Counted from the first letter of the stretch, positions 831 through 10,073 are shown. The stretch is 15,728 nucleotides of DNA from a virus (IMGVR_UViG_2740892229_000020), one strand, 5' to 3'. Translations and numbers: made by a program. The notes: generated from the letters alone by a model not told the origin.

Positions 831-1376
831 TCATATTGCCCCCAGCATGGTGGTCACCATCGCCATTAATGGACCAGCCAAATCCGGGTCCACACGAAAC
901 ATCGACACAATGCCTTCACTCATCTCCTTCAGTTTCTGGTGGCGTGGTGCGTTGAGAATGACAGCCTGTTTTGCCTCACTGAGTTCCTTTTCCATTTCAG
1001 CCAGCCGAGCCATGAAGCTATCCTGCTCAACCAGGTGGCCGCGATATTTCAGCGGTAGTACTGCCAGAATTGCTGGAGTCAGTTCACGCACGTTATTTCG
1101 GTATTTTTCAGAATCGAATTTGTTATCGAGAAAGCGGAACAGCTTCTGGCGTGCACGACTGACATCATCAGGAAAATCGATAGTGCCGCCGCCCTGTGCT
1201 CGATACTCATTCACAATGAGTGCGGCAACGACATCCTGATTATCTACAGCCGACCAGGCGCGGATGGCATCACGGATTTTTTCGTGGCCTGGCACCTGTT
1301 TTATTTGAGAACGATTTATCACCGCAGTCGGGATAAATCCGCTAGTCTGTTGGTATGTAAGTGGTTGCATAGTCAT
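831..1376 (-). CDS. cII-position regulator, YdaT-family-like protein (181 aa)
   Basis: Complete ORF between the cro-like gene and the O-like gene on the same strand. The product has a QGGG motif and a TPAILAVLPLKYR segment that I recall from YdaT-type proteins of Rac-like immunity regions; family call is from memory. An alternative start two codons in (ATG at 1368-1370) has better Shine-Dalgarno spacing. Confidence 0.55.
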   Translation of the reverse strand: MTMQPLTYQQTSGFIPTAVINRSQIKQVPGHEKIRDAIRAWSAVDNQDVVAALIVNEYRAQGGGTIDFPDDVSRARQKLFRFLDNKFDSEKYRNNVRELTPAILAVLPLKYRGHLVEQDSFMARLAEMEKELSEAKQAVILNAPRHQKLKEMSEGIVSMFRVDPDLAGPLMAMVTTMLGAI

Positions 1377-1400: not shown

Positions 1401-1628
1401 TTAGGCGGCAGAATTACTCGCGTTAAACAATGGTGCGAGGTCGGGACGAATATCTGCTGGTTTAATCTTTCCACCAGTGGCTGAGACAATTTTCATTACA
1501 TAGCGGGCATCAATTCCGCCACCGTGTAGCCAACGCCAAACAGTGGGTTGGGCTACACCGCATAGATCTGCCAGTCGTTTTTGACTACCTGTAATACTGA
1601 TTGCGAGTTGAATGGTTTGATTTGTCAT
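1401..1628 (-). CDS. Cro-like HTH regulator (YdaS/Cro family), ~75 aa
   Basis: Small HTH protein (…QKRLADLCGVAQPTVWRWLHGGG… ATGGKIKPADIRPDL) divergent from the repressor gene. The ORF track starts at a TTG (1634); the ATG at 1626-1628 is preceded by an AGGA Shine-Dalgarno with 7-nt spacing, so I place the start there. Confidence 0.75.
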   Translation of the reverse strand: MTNQTIQLAISITGSQKRLADLCGVAQPTVWRWLHGGGIDARYVMKIVSATGGKIKPADIRPDLAPLFNASNSAA

Positions 1629-1738
1629 TATCAATTCCTATTGGTATTGCAATGAATGAATAATAGCAATGCGTATTAATCCAAGCAATAGCAAAACATG
1701 TTTTGACCATCAATACGCAAGCGTATAAATTAAAACTT
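1629..1738. promoter_or_regulatory. OR-like divergent promoter/operator region between cro-like and CI-like genes
   Basis: About 110 bp of AT-rich intergenic sequence between divergent regulator genes. Contains the palindrome ATTGCAAT (1644-1651), repeated AATAGCAA(T) motifs (1662-1670, 1687-1694) and a plus-strand TTGACC (1704-1709) … TATAAA (1724-1729) pair with a short 14-bp spacer, just upstream of the repressor start. Promoter assignments are tentative. Confidence 0.45.
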
Positions 1739-2431
1739 ATGAAAAAAGAAACTCTTGCTGATCGCTTAAACCTAGCGATGGAACAATCTGGAATGTCTCA
1801 AGGCGCTCTTGCAAAGGCGTCTGGCGTAGCTCAACCCACAATCTGGAGACTGACAAGCGGCAACGCGCGCGGCTCAACAAAAATTGTTGAAATAGCTAAT
1901 GCATTGGGTGTTCGAACAGAATGGCTCTCATCAGGCATAGGCCCGATGAGAAATGACGGTCAACAATCAGGGAAGCCTGCTGTCAGCCATTCCAAATACT
2001 TCAAAATTGACGTTCTTGATATAGAAGTCAGTGCCGGGCCGGGTGTAATCAACCGTGAGTTTGTAGAAGTTCTACGCTCGGTTGAGTACTCGTTTGACGA
2101 TGCTCGTCACATGTTCGATGGCAGGAAGGCGGAAAATATCCGCATCATTAACGTGCGTGGTGACAGCATGTCAGGAACGATCGAACCAGGTGATCTGCTG
2201 TTCGTTGATATCACGGTTAAATCTTTCGACGGTGATGGTATCTATGCGTTTCTGTACGACGACACAGCCCATGTAAAGCGCCTGCAAATGATGAAAGATA
2301 AGCTACTGGTTATCTCTGATAACAAGAGCTACTCACCGTGGGACCCGATCGAGAAAGACGAGATGAACCGGGTGTTCATCTTCGGTAAGGTTATTGGGAG
2401 CATGCCGCAGACGTACAGGAAGCATGGTTAA
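1703..2431 (+). CDS. CI-type prophage repressor (N-terminal HTH, C-terminal LexA-like S24 peptidase domain)
   Basis: HTH segment MSQGALAKASGVAQPTIWRL; Ala-Gly autocleavage-like site (EVSAGPG); catalytic Ser in RGDSMSGTIEPGD and Lys in AHVKRL. Divergent from the cro-like gene. An alternative start at ATG 1739 (MKKETLADRL…) is possible; neither start has a strong Shine-Dalgarno, which would fit a leaderless transcript as for lambda cI. Confidence 0.85.
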   Translation: MTINTQAYKLKLMKKETLADRLNLAMEQSGMSQGALAKASGVAQPTIWRLTSGNARGSTKIVEIANALGVRTEWLSSGIGPMRNDGQQSGKPAVSHSKYFKIDVLDIEVSAGPGVINREFVEVLRSVEYSFDDARHMFDGRKAENIRIINVRGDSMSGTIEPGDLLFVDITVKSFDGDGIYAFLYDDTAHVKRLQMMKDKLLVISDNKSYSPWDPIEKDEMNRVFIFGKVIGSMPQTYRKHG

Positions 2432-2512: not shown

Positions 2513-2986
2513 ATGGAAAAGCCTAGCTTCCCACCTCTTCTTACAGCAGGATTTCATGATATGGATAGTGATGGCATCAAGTCTCTTTGTGTCGACACCT
2601 TCCCAAAATCCGTTAGAAGAAGTATGCTATACTGTAATTTTATACAGCTTATTGAGCAATTTAAACTTGTTAATCAGCAGTGTCTATGTTTCTCTGAAGT
2701 GTGGATCGATGGTTCATTCACTACAGAGAAACCTGAACCTGATGACATAGATATACTCGTGGTCGTCGATTATTTGGCCCTAAACTCTTTGCCAAACACG
2801 CTGATGCCATTGGTTAGCTCATTGTTAAATAGAGATTTTATTAAAGAAAACTACAGCATTGACGTTCTTTTGCTGCCTGAAAATCATCCAGAAATCGATT
2901 ATAGTGAAAGGCGAAGTTACTGGAGAGGGTGGTTTGGTTTTGATCGGAAGGAGAATCCTAAAGGCCTCGTGAGGGTAATGTTATGA
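2513..2986 (+). CDS. Small predicted nucleotidyltransferase-fold protein (157 aa), first gene of an AT-rich two-gene module at the rexAB-equivalent position
   Basis: Complete ORF with a Shine-Dalgarno-like AAGGA upstream. Contains a GS-x10-DxD motif (WIDGSFTTEKPEPDDIDILVVVD) characteristic of Pol-beta-type/minimal nucleotidyltransferases. Noticeably AT-rich compared with flanking phage genes. The fold call is from motif inspection only. Confidence 0.6.
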   Translation: MEKPSFPPLLTAGFHDMDSDGIKSLCVDTFPKSVRRSMLYCNFIQLIEQFKLVNQQCLCFSEVWIDGSFTTEKPEPDDIDILVVVDYLALNSLPNTLMPLVSSLLNRDFIKENYSIDVLLLPENHPEIDYSERRSYWRGWFGFDRKENPKGLVRVML

Positions 2987-3915
2987 GCGAAGAAAAAACA
3001 TTCAACTCCCTCAAGGAGCGAATTGCGTTCATTCAACGCGATGTGGATCTGCTTGCTCAAAATAAGGGGAGATCATTTGCTGATGACATTATATTTAGAT
3101 CACTTGACTCCCATCTGAGCGATCTCCGAGAGAGACAACGTGCAATCGATAACCAACATCCTTTACGTGATTTCATGGAGTTGAGATTAAAAGGTGTTTT
3201 GGTCGATTTCGGGTCTATTCCGTTAGATATTCTATCTGTAATTTCAGGTAATCTCGCATCCCTTGTACAGAAAGCAGTTTACCGACTTGGATCTGGGAAA
3301 GATTCTAGTCGTGTGCCGATTGATGTTAAAAAATCATTAGACATGAGATTGGCAGACTTGCGTCCAGGTTCGACGAAGTTAGGTGTTACTTTTTCTACTG
3401 GTTCTTGCGAGCTCATCGAAACAGTATCCAGTCATGCTGTTAAGGAGATTTTTGCACTACTCTCATCCATTGATGAAGAAACATTCACGGCTAAAATTGC
3501 CGAAATTGGTTCGCAATCAACAGCTAACCTAAAAAACATCATAAATGAGTGCGAAAAATATAGTCTTAACTTTGATCTTACTTGGATTGGACCTTTAAGT
3601 GATGGTACCAGACAAGTGTCAATTTCTTCAGAAGATATAAAAAAACTGAATGCTCGCTTAGCTTTAACGAAGGTCATTCAGCTACCGGATGAGCATATAT
3701 CAGGCGAACTTGCTATTTTATCCATGTACGGGAAATTGGAGATTGCAAGCGAGCTTGGAAAAATAAAGGCTTCTTATCCGATTGATATGTTAGGAGAAAT
3801 TCAAAGTAAATATAAAGTTGGTGAACGAATATCGCTCGTAGTAAGCGTTTCTGAGATTCACAATGAAAGATTAGGAACATCACGACGTAACTACATGGTT
3901 AAAAAAATCGAATAG
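2983..3915 (+). CDS. Hypothetical protein (310 aa), second gene of the two-gene module; function unknown
   Basis: Start ATG overlaps the stop of the upstream gene (ATGA at 2983-2986), with GAGGG 9 nt upstream, indicating translational coupling. AT-rich. Followed by a strong intrinsic terminator. No catalytic motif recognised; contains RSLDSH (an Rx4H pattern) that is not diagnostic on its own. Confidence 0.7.
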   Translation: MSEEKTFNSLKERIAFIQRDVDLLAQNKGRSFADDIIFRSLDSHLSDLRERQRAIDNQHPLRDFMELRLKGVLVDFGSIPLDILSVISGNLASLVQKAVYRLGSGKDSSRVPIDVKKSLDMRLADLRPGSTKLGVTFSTGSCELIETVSSHAVKEIFALLSSIDEETFTAKIAEIGSQSTANLKNIINECEKYSLNFDLTWIGPLSDGTRQVSISSEDIKKLNARLALTKVIQLPDEHISGELAILSMYGKLEIASELGKIKASYPIDMLGEIQSKYKVGERISLVVSVSEIHNERLGTSRRNYMVKKIE

Positions 3916-3923
3916 TGATGCTA

Positions 3924-3950
3924 CCCGGCCACCGTGCCGGGTTTTCTTTT
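3924..3950 (+). terminator. Rho-independent terminator closing the CI / two-gene operon
   Basis: 6-bp GC stem CCCGGC (3924-3929) / GCCGGG (3936-3941), loop CACCGT, followed by TTTTCTTTT (3942-3950). Confidence 0.65.
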
Positions 3951-4077
3951 GCCTCCCCCTCATCACACAAACCGTTCGAAAAACCACCATAACCCCCGCT
4001 TCAGTTATCGCTATGCGATGCAAGTCACAAAATTAATTCTTTTTGCTATCAAACATTTAATATCAAAACACATCAGC

Positions 4078-4130
4078 CAATAGCGATAAGTATTGATATC
4101 ACCAATAGCAATAGCTATTATCACCATATC
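4078..4130 (+). promoter_or_regulatory. pL-like early-left promoter with candidate operator repeats
   Basis: TTGATA (4093-4098), 17-bp spacer, TATTAT (4116-4121) on the plus strand. Overlapped by a direct repeat of TATCACC (4097-4103, 4119-4125), AATAGC repeats (4079-4084, 4104-4109, 4110-4115) and the palindrome AATAGCTATT (4110-4119). The AATAGC motif is shared with the OR-like region. Confidence 0.45.
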
Positions 4131-4194
4131 GCAACAACACAACGATACGGCAACCACCTGATTCACCGTTGCGATGACCGCTTAGATCCGCAGC

Positions 4195-4434
4195 TTGAAT
4201 TTCAGCAGGCTCCGGGGAGTGCGAGGGGTGAAGCGGACGCGTGAACGTCGGTGTGACCAGCTGAAATCAACTCAACACTTCATACCTCAGTCGCTTCAAC
4301 GAGGCGACTTAGTTATGACAACCGGCGGCCATCCACCGCCTGAATACGCGCAGAAGTCTCAATATGTTCAGCAGCCCAGCTTACGGGCAGGAGTTTTTTA
4401 TGGTTCATCAACATTACGGAACGCAGACCGTTAA
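4195..4434 (+). CDS. Possible small arginine-rich protein (79 aa); weak candidate for an N-like factor, uncertain
   Basis: ORF begins just downstream of the pL-like promoter with an Arg-rich N-terminus (RLRGVRGVKRTRERR). No convincing Shine-Dalgarno; overlaps the next ORF by 35 nt. Not similar to lambda N as far as I can recall. Confidence 0.2.
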   Translation: MNFSRLRGVRGVKRTRERRCDQLKSTQHFIPQSLQRGDLVMTTGGHPPPEYAQKSQYVQQPSLRAGVFYGSSTLRNADR

Positions 4435-4606
4435 TCGAGGTGCGGTCATGCCAGGAATGCTGGTCAAACACAAAGATGGTACCTGGACTGCATCAGCTAA
4501 TTTACGCGGACGGCTTTATCTGCATCGCGGCATCGAGCGCACTTATACCCGTGATTTGCTCGTAGAAGTTTTTCTCGACGGACGCGGTAACGGCCTGAAT
4601 CACTAA
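4400..4606 (+). CDS. Hypothetical protein (68 aa) occupying the kil position immediately upstream of gam in this segment
   Basis: ATG at 4400 is preceded by AGGAG (4389-4393) with 6-nt spacing. Stop at 4604-4606 falls exactly where homology to the kil-gam junction of the other copy (5516-5518) begins. Confidence 0.45.
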
Positions 4607-4681
4607 TCCCCTTTCCTGTTTTCCTAATCAGCCTGGCATTTCGCGGGCGATATTTTCACAGCCATTTTCAGGAGTTCAGCC

Positions 4682-4882
4682 ATGAACGCTTATTACATTC
4701 AGGATCGTCTTGAGGCTCAGAGCTGGGCACGTCACTACCAGCAGATCGCCCGTGAAGAGAAAGAGGCAGAACTGGCAGACGACATGGAAAAAGGCCTGCC
4801 CCAGCACCTGTTTGAATCGCTATGCATCGATCATTTGCAACGCCACGGGGCCAGCAAAAAAGCCATTACCCGTGCGTTTGAT
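4682..4882 (+). CDS. gam: Gam (host RecBCD inhibitor), 5' portion, truncated by the N run at 4883
   Basis: [67 protein letters not shown]… matches lambda Gam. A second allele of the same sequence, differing by a few synonymous substitutions, is at 5594..5890. Confidence 0.8.
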
Positions 4883-4892
4883 NNNNNNNNNN
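4883..4892. other. Run of 10 N (assembly gap or masked junction)
   Basis: Exactly 10 ambiguous bases; the following 104 bp (4893-4996) are a near-copy of 5007-5110. Confidence 0.95.
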
Positions 4893-5169: not shown

Positions 5170-5241
5170 GCGCGGCGTTACCGCATACCAATAACGCTTC
5201 ACTCGAGGCGTTTTTCGTTATGTATAAATAAGGAGCACACC

Positions 5242-5406
5242 ATGCAATATGCCATTGCAGGGTGGCCTGTTGCTGGCTGCCCTTCCGAATCTTTACTTGA
5301 ACGAATCACCCGTAAATTACGTGACGGATGGAAACGCCTTATCGACATACTTAATCAGCCAGGAGTCCCGAAAAATGGATCAAACAATTATGGCTATCCA
5401 GACTAA
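5242..5406 (+). CDS. cIII: CIII (protects CII by inhibiting FtsH), 54 aa
   Basis: AGGAG 7 nt upstream of ATG 5242; translation [54 protein letters not shown], near-identical to lambda CIII as I recall it. Shorter than the ORF-track cutoff, so it is not in the track. Confidence 0.85.
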   Translation: MQYAIAGWPVAGCPSESLLERITRKLRDGWKRLIDILNQPGVPKNGSNNYGYPD

Positions 5407-9158: not shown

Positions 9159-9180
9159 ACATGAAAAGCAAAATCATCAG

Positions 9181-9204
9181 GGAGCTACAGGCTCCTTTTT
9201 TATT
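9181..9204 (+). terminator. Candidate intrinsic terminator (tL-like) inside the early-left operon
   Basis: Stem GGAGC (9181-9185) / GCTCC (9191-9195), loop TACAG, then TTTTTTATT. Confidence 0.45.
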
Positions 9205-10027: not shown

Positions 10028-10049
10028 ACATGAAAAGCAAAATCATCAG

Positions 10050-10073
10050 GGAGCTACAGGCTCCTTTTTTATT
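10050..10073 (+). terminator. Candidate intrinsic terminator (second copy of the 9181..9204 hairpin)
   Basis: GGAGC (10050-10054), loop TACAG, GCTCC (10060-10064), then TTTTTTATT. Confidence 0.45.

Follow-up and report, generated by a model that had tools for sequence, protein, structure and literature searches.

Introduction

How does a lambdoid prophage that has no N gene carry its early-left transcripts past downstream terminators? This question is raised by a 15,728-nucleotide stretch of viral DNA (IMGVR_UViG_2740892229_000020; hereafter the window). A preliminary description of it had reported a pL-like promoter followed not by a recognizable N gene but by an arginine-rich small open reading frame (ORF) and a possible RNA structure, and had proposed either a divergent N/nut system or an RNA-based system like that of phage HK022.

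To our knowledge, put RNA is the textbook case, with hardly any others known, in which a nascent RNA reprograms bacterial RNA polymerase without a protein factor. It suppresses both termination and pausing, an effect lost when the zinc-binding domain of the RNA polymerase beta' subunit is mutated. In HK639, it was reportedly shown experimentally by King et al. in 2011. The put RNAs are cis-acting antiterminators that bind the zinc-binding domain of the RNA polymerase beta' subunit, and only about ten put sequences were being aligned as of 2022 (PMC9378689). Our literature search found no paper on antitermination in Bievrevirus or PhiR phages. Here we describe two conserved RNA elements in the leader of such a prophage, and we discuss whether the first of them (module 1) could be a functional analogue of put.

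Results

The window is part of a lambdoid prophage (Table 1). The region analyzed here comprises the pL promoter and the leader of an N-less prophage of the Bievrevirus/PhiR30_1 type, which combines a Rac-type immunity region with lambda-type structural genes. The complete phage PhiR30_1 (PV340558) shares 99.9% identity with the window across positions 3900-4700, and the close relatives include the Bievrevirus phages 4A7 and 4C10, phages 1W/3W, Perceval and several PhiR phages. In PhiR30_1 and its relatives, the genes are ordered repressor, variable cargo, promoter, leader, kil, gam, bet and exo, and these phages sharing the leader are viable isolates. The two cargo genes of the window match the PADLOC candidate defence system PDC-M63 (A: 7e-43; B: 4e-42), the first being a nucleotidyltransferase-like DUF6932 gene. 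Elsewhere, the same cargo slot holds SIR2 (O157 prophage), GevT/GevA (PhiR47_2) or an ASCH-domain gene (4A7).

Table 1. Features of the early-left control region and its surroundings, in window coordinates.
Feature	Position	Strand	Remarks
YdaT-type 'cII'	831-1376	-	
YdaS-type Cro	1401-1634	-	
cI-like S24 repressor	1703-2431	+	
Two cargo genes 3' of the repressor	2513-2986, 2983-3915	+	rexAB position, between cI and pL
Intrinsic terminator closing the cI-cargo (immunity) transcript	3923-3942	+	Just 5' of pL; 7-bp stem (6 GC), then TTTCTTTT
Operator-like repeats around pL	4078-4126		CAATAGC/ATAGCAAT motifs; TATCACCA twice
Early-left promoter (pL analogue)	4093-4121	+	TTGATA-17-TATTAT; 10/12 consensus matches
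Variable transcript 5' end	4122-4171	+	C-rich, G-poor (GC skew -0.4 to -0.54); carries the ATCGCAAC arm of the 8-bp repeat
Module 1, conserved two-stem leader RNA of ~84 nt	4179-4262	+	Candidate put analogue; alignment A4, RNAalifold
Module 1, closing helix P1	4179-4181/4221-4223		
Module 1, stem I	4188-4190/4213-4215, 4192-4197/4206-4211		
Module 1, stem II	4224-4225/4261-4262, 4227-4229/4256-4258, 4233-4234/4251-4252, 4236-4238/4247-4249		
Arg-rich ORF, 79 aa, TTG start	4195-4434	+	...RLRGVRGVKRTRERR...; chance open frame over two RNA elements, not a gene
Module 2	4280-4345	+	Widespread conserved 'post-terminator' leader element before kilR
Module 2, hairpin A	4280-4318	+	Alignment A3
Mini-ORF MTTGGHPPP...	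4315-4434	+	39 codons in the window; frame of the Arg-rich ORF
Module 2, hairpin B	4324-4340	+	GGCGG-CCATCCA-CCGCC, invariant
kilR-type cell-division inhibitor	4400-4606	+	First real gene of the operon; GGAG-T6-ATG; PHROG 294, 1.3e-37
Intrinsic terminator inside the early-left operon	9179-9197	+	Strong hairpin and T-run; duplicate copy 10048-10066

Six N10 runs from position 4883 on (4883, 4997, 6502, 7292, 9266 and 11784) show that the window is a gapped scaffold, which between 4883 and 11793 joins alternative versions of one early-left region and carries gam/bet and several hairpins twice (4631/5543, 8219/9453 and 9179/10048). A cIII-kil-gam segment of the lambda/Stx-phage type is placed after the kilR-type gam. 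The single match in the whole window to reach an Rfam gathering score, the Lambda_thermo cIII thermometer at 5229-5287 (88.5 bits), belongs to this second phage type. Because of the gaps and duplicated segments, what had been described as the downstream operon is not contiguous in the window, and PhiR30_1 was therefore taken as the contiguous operon reference. Of the intrinsic terminators reported inside that operon, the strong one at 9179-9197 does belong to a pL operon, since the identical sequence is found in that of PhiR30_1 (L001 9568-9586), between orf61 and a TraR-like gene.

The promoter that had been proposed as pL is the sole sigma-70-like match in 3850-4750. Its position relative to the repressor and cargo genes is the same in PhiR30_1, 4A7, the O157 prophage and PhiR47_2. 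It is embedded in operator-like repeats: TATCACCA occurs at 4097 and 4119, where 0.44 occurrences are expected, and ATAGCAAT-type motifs recur in the cro/cI intergenic region (1640-1700), which fits a repressor-controlled pL.

The 8-bp inverted repeat that had been noted in the leader exists, but its second arm, GTTGCGAT, lies at 4168-4175 and not at 4171-4178. It is unused in the minimum free energy (MFE) fold. In the O157 variant of the leader, unrelated sequence stands in place of 4122-4171 and homology begins at about 4162, so that the 5' arm is missing; the repeat is thus not the conserved structure. Folding of the whole leader, or of 4128-4282, gave z-scores of about 0. In phages of the phi80, HK225, HK639, ENT1 and KO-TP1 types, the pL transcripts open with about 55 nt in common, CCATCGAAACGAAACATCGACAGCTGAGCGAAGTTAGCCAGCGGCG (L004 1262-1320, L005 640-700, L006 1245-1300, L010 1505-1560, L011 1843-1900 and L028 5316-5365). 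The cassettes 3' of this common start differ and comprise put, module 1 and others (ENT1 and phi80 types). The leader of the window begins with CCATATCGCAACAACACAACGATA, which loosely resembles it.

No N-like gene follows pL, as the preliminary description had stated. The ORFs between pL and gam gave no N-type match, the first gene being kilR, and N is likewise absent from the whole annotated PhiR30_1 genome and from all close relatives compared. The PHROG 294 match of kilR is full-length (residues 1-68), and the gene is also supported by PGAP annotation; against NCBIfam PRK11354 it scores 63 bits (1.8e-17), under the curated cutoff of 92. Just before its start, a T6 run (4394-4399) separates the upstream frame from kilR in the window, PhiR30_1 and E. 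coli M8. Most relatives have T5 instead, which places the upstream frame and the AUG at 4315 in frame with kilR, and in these relatives gene finders call a 96-aa 'long Kil' (cluster P0033, 472 members).

The arginine-rich ORF that had been named as the first after pL is present, and profile searches, which the preliminary description had suggested, found no Pfam, PHROG or NCBIfam family match for either 4195-4431 or 4228-4431. The remark that it has no good ribosome-binding site is correct for the TTG at 4195, but GGGGAG precedes an in-frame GTG (4228) by 8 nt. Read from this GTG (or ATG) in 45 E. coli-type loci, the frame extends to 125 aa by fusion with Kil in 22 loci, ends after 20 aa in 18, where CAG at 4288 has become TAG, and ends after 29 aa in three, owing to a 5-nt insertion that duplicates CTCAA; single loci have 67 aa and 68 aa, the latter being the window only. 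In homologues with about 80% identity, it stops at codon 5 (GTG AAG CGG ACG TGA in L028, an Enterobacter intestinihominis locus) or at codon 2 (GTG TAA in L123 and L164). Gene finders almost never call this ORF, and PGAP annotates nothing there, though, of 5426 complete E. coli genomes, 2231 contain the leader at an identity of at least 95%. Among 5.8 billion proteins searched, the only matches were partial ones, due either to Kil being called from the ATG at 4315 or to singleton calls. Rather than a gene, the Arg-rich ORF is a by-product of two RNA elements that it overlaps: its supposed arginine codons are stem II of module 1, and its second half is the mini-ORF of module 2. We also considered that it might be what a deletion had left of an N gene, and rejected this reading as no N-bearing phage with this leader was found.

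Module 1 was examined in a gap-free alignment of 18 distinct sequences (A4), for which RNAalifold predicted two adjacent stems closed by a short helix. Across its 22 pairs, 99.5% of cells are paired, as against 25-40% with slid partners, the structure having been derived from the same alignment on which pairing was scored. Compensatory changes occur at four pairs, compared with zero to one in the slid controls, and represent about three to four independent events in about four lineages. Stem I, for instance, shows AG/CU changing to CA/UG, and stem II shows A-U changing to G-C as well as A-U/G-U/G-C. Four lineages, each folded individually, adopt one and the same MFE architecture, with ordinary folding energies (z = -0.1 to -1.7). 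An nhmmer search with 4122-4278 against the fetched loci recovered the distant homologues L028 and L123, the latter an IMG/VR contig, with E-values of about 1e-15. In these homologues, module 1 is about 80% identical and the Arg-rich frame acquires stops, and the Enterobacter and IMG/VR copies keep every helix via compensatory changes. The preliminary description had allowed that the leader might prove unconserved and unstructured; the folding and covariance analysis it called for finds a conserved, structured RNA.

Metagenomes contain two more module-1 copies of the slot type described below. Scans for further module-1 lineages returned one chance match, and none among the IMG/VR matches listed. 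We tried frame +1 of module 1 as a coding sequence and rejected it: the frame is open in all lineages, but the E. coli-type transcript offers it no ATG, GTG or TTG, and the compensatory RNA changes would alter the amino acids that it encodes. When the leader was compared by BLAST with the whole PhiR30_1 genome, no second copy of module 1 or the leader was found, and the gap between cro and cII is only about 25-30 nt. A covariance model of module 1 (R2) gave a single weak match in PhiR30_1 (23.3 bits, rough E 0.002; L007 39723-39806), which lies within the coding sequence of the side tail fibre gene (stf) on the late-operon strand and is probably due to chance.

The relation of module 1 to put is one of position. 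In pL leaders of the HK639/phi80 type (L028 and L123), a module-1 core of about 100 nt lies between ...GCCAGCGGCGAAGTGGAG and TTTACCAGCAGCTCTTTGCGAGGGGCTGACGG..., exactly where HK639 carries putL, annotated in GenBank as 'putL-like antiterminator RNA'. The downstream flank, TTTACCAGCAGCTCTTTGCG, is the same in the HK639, L028 and L123 types. After the identical upstream flank CAGCGGCGAAGTGGAG, at least 92 IMG/VR loci, which are not phylogenetically independent, have put, at least 13 have module 1 and at least 17 have unrelated sequence. Among the matches listed, at least 59 loci have module 1 only, at least 102 have put only and none has both, so that put and module 1 are mutually exclusive alternative inserts in one slot. 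The exchange is clearest in L164, an HK639 operon with module 1 in place of put, which shares with HK639 the HK639_45 homologue, the terminator AACCCGCTCCGGCGGGTTTTTT and the post-terminator element that we term module 2. In L123, three intrinsic terminators and no N-like ORF lie downstream of module 1, and L256 has module 1 together with HK022-like operators.

Module 2 was first delimited by BLAST, in which 4279-4359 is common to phi80, HK225, HK639 and Enterobacter and Klebsiella phages. A scan with the invariant 25-mer TATGACAANCGGCGGCCATCCACCG against one genome per species and IMG/VR found 18 loci in genomes and at least 120 in IMG/VR; the element lies before kil or other early-left genes, as in L004, L005, L006, L010-L029 and at least 90 IMG/VR loci. 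Covariation gives strong support to hairpin A: seven of its pairs change on both sides, and 97% of cells are paired, as against 29-51% with slid partners. In the predicted structure, the lower stem of hairpin A pairs CAUA with UAUG and would thereby occlude the AUG at 4315-4317 and the GAG(G) 10-12 nt upstream of it. Of the mini-ORF that starts there, only the first eight to nine codons, MTTGGHPP(P/T/S), are conserved elsewhere, with tails of 11 to more than 99 aa. The conserved motif that comes next, GCGCAGAAGTCTTGT, falls in three different reading frames, which places conservation past these codons at the nucleotide level. The invariance of hairpin B is partly by construction, as it served as a search anchor.

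In 89 of the 94 non-E. coli-type loci listed, module 2 directly follows the T-run of an intrinsic, tL1-type terminator (TTTTTTCATACC...). In two of the remaining listed loci (L039 and L042), and in L173 from a later scan, put is joined straight to module 2 (...CTTCATACC), as module 1 is in the window, where the tL1-type terminator is absent. Hairpin B is annotated as 'terminator' in HK639, in which a T-run follows it. We considered 4279-4359 as tL1, following the phi80 and HK639 annotations, and rejected it because no T-run follows in the window; the real terminator of the relatives lies just upstream of CATACC. We found no described function for module 2, and the possibilities include control over translation of the gene that follows (often the toxic kil), a leader peptide sensitive to EF-P, as the polyproline start of the mini-ORF suggests, and a processing site. 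A separate intergenic unit, AAAGCATTTCTCCCGCATCAGCGGGTAAC(G/T)ACAGAGGG, forms a small hairpin just before the ribosome-binding site of several early-left genes in phi80-type phages (L005 1003-1040; L006 1765-1795 and 1985-2015; L010 2270-2310; L011 2235-2275).

We compared module 1 with three known systems. Like put in HK022 (putL/putR) and HK639 (putL), it lies in the nascent early-left transcript just after pL and consists of two adjacent imperfect stem-loops of about 70-85 nt, in a phage that has intrinsic terminators downstream and no N. It differs in its loop and bulge sequences and in having no putR-like second copy, and it does not match the HK022-type put core (GAACGGC...CGTCGG...GGCGGG.TCA.GGA.GA...GGCAAT). 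A put covariance model (R1), trained on HK022 putL and putR and HK639 putL, which themselves score 67-101 bits, gave no match with E<=10 for either the window or the whole PhiR30_1 genome, with filters off. Pairwise alignments of module 1 to four put RNAs were no better than shuffles, so module 1 falls outside the HK022 put family in both sequence and structure. Rfam, which lacks a family for put, leaves HK022 put itself unmatched; within 3900-4700 it returned nothing better than E=1, and those matches are miRNA/CRISPR noise. The suggestion of a put-like, RNA-based system is thus borne out as far as a conserved RNA in the put slot of an N-less phage, and fails as regards the put family and a second copy.

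Module 1 resembles lambda N/nutL in being transcribed first from pL and in having a CGCT-initiated box followed by a hairpin, with an arginine-rich stretch in one frame. The box, CGCTTAGA (4179-4186), had been said to resemble boxA loosely. It is present, and CGCTT(A/T)GA is kept in all 18 module-1 variants, but it matches lambda boxA (CGCTCTTA; consensus CGCTCTT(T)A) at five of eight positions and is not a free boxA: it forms the 5' strand of P1 and an internal loop, with its CGC paired in P1. Lambda boxB has a 5-bp stem and a purine-rich pentaloop, whereas the hairpin of module 1 has 6+3 bp and an 8-nt loop, AAUUUCAG. BLAST and R2 found no counterpart of nutR in PhiR30_1. With no N-family protein and an unconserved Arg-rich frame, these differences speak against the divergent N/nut system that had been proposed. 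The third system is that of the Rac prophage and kilR-type phages, with which the window shares the YdaS/YdaT-type immunity region and an early-left kilR that lies behind a long non-coding leader. Upstream of kilR in K-12 Rac, however, the sequence, including that of the KilS sRNA, is unrelated to either module. KilS (L150 2906-3003, minus strand) lies about 175 nt upstream of kilR, a comparable position. In Rac, kilR is silenced by Rho, and the Rho terminator described there is located within racR (PMC4150792).

Discussion

The simplest reading of our analysis is that module 1 may be a functional put analogue, a cis-acting leader RNA that carries pL transcripts past terminators without N; we consider the case for and against this role to be evenly poised. 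The argument is one of position and analogy, and draws on the interchange of module 1 and put in one slot, their shared downstream architecture, the absence of both N and put, and the terminators downstream. Transcription from pL would yield an untranslated leader of about 270 nt that comprises two RNA modules. Within it, module 1 would fold into its two adjacent stem-loops and act in cis on the transcribing RNA polymerase, as put RNA does in HK022 and HK639. The modified polymerase would then resist terminators further down the operon, as well as Rho in the long untranslated leader, and module 1 would thereby replace N. Both antitermination by module 1 and its binding to RNA polymerase are inferred from this likeness. 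Module 1 would not account for read-through of the early-right operon, as the pR operon lacks a second copy, and since the tL1 that usually precedes module 2 is missing here, kil-gam-bet-exo may need no antitermination.

The latter point leads to an explanation that we regard as possible but distinctly less probable, in which module 1 is a structured 5' untranslated region that stabilizes the mRNA, controls kil translation or is the target of an sRNA or protein. The operon would have become independent of N through loss of tL1, and the downstream terminator would merely end it. The absence here of the hairpin and T-run found before most other listed copies of module 2 is consistent with this, as are the lack of a second copy for pR and the ordinary folding z-scores of module 1. 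The toxicity of the kilR product, which is known to be tightly silenced in Rac (PMC4150792), also fits this explanation. Such a region would, however, leave unexplained why module 1 is swapped with put between identical flanks, and in L164, L123 and L028 there are terminators between the RNA and the downstream genes, with neither N nor put. Alternatively, the order of motifs in module 1 (boxA-like CGCUUAGA, hairpin, GGUGUGA) resembles boxA-boxB-boxC, and together with the conservation of the box in 18 of 18 variants could point to a nut-like site that recruits host Nus factors or a phage protein. We consider this improbable, given the partial boxA match with its paired CGC, a stem I unlike boxB, the absent nutR counterpart and the absence of a conserved partner protein, as the downstream ORFs wholly differ among the E. 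coli type, L028, L123 and L164.

Two further explanations carry still less weight. One holds that the Arg-rich ORF encodes a short N-like peptide with an arginine-rich motif (MKRTRERR...) that binds the leader RNA. Its RxRERR resembles the arginine-rich motif of lambda N, TRRRERR, and the GTG at 4228 with its upstream GGGGAG, replaced by ATG in some variants, could serve as a start. This idea is largely refuted and hardly credible: 43 of 45 relatives have the ORF either shortened to 20 or 29 aa or joined to Kil, the early stops in L028, L123 and L164 leave the RNA pairing intact, GGGGAG becomes GGGAAG in several variants, and there is neither a family match nor a PGAP call. The other holds that the leader has no function of its own and that its conservation simply reflects a prophage module having spread recently. 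Identity among the E. coli copies is 95-100%, which by itself is silent on constraint, yet the homologues at 80% identity retain every helix through compensatory changes and both modules recur in several unrelated flanking contexts, which makes this view very unlikely.

Returning to the put analogue, we tentatively suggest, in a reading that falls just short of being probable, that 4179-4262 represents a second family of cis-acting antiterminator RNAs that modify RNA polymerase, unrelated to put in sequence. In lambdoid phages, this RNA would take over the function of put and N. Prophages carrying it are present in about 40% of complete E. coli genomes, O157:H7 among them. For phage annotation, our analysis removes a spurious 'Kil' or hypothetical gene call that is present in some records. 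If the put-like role of module 1 is true, factor-free RNA antitermination has more than one structural solution, and the two RNAs would form a natural pair in which to compare the structural rules for binding the beta' zinc-binding domain. Such a role would also explain how early genes are expressed in very common N-less E. coli prophages, including O157 prophages and Bievrevirus.
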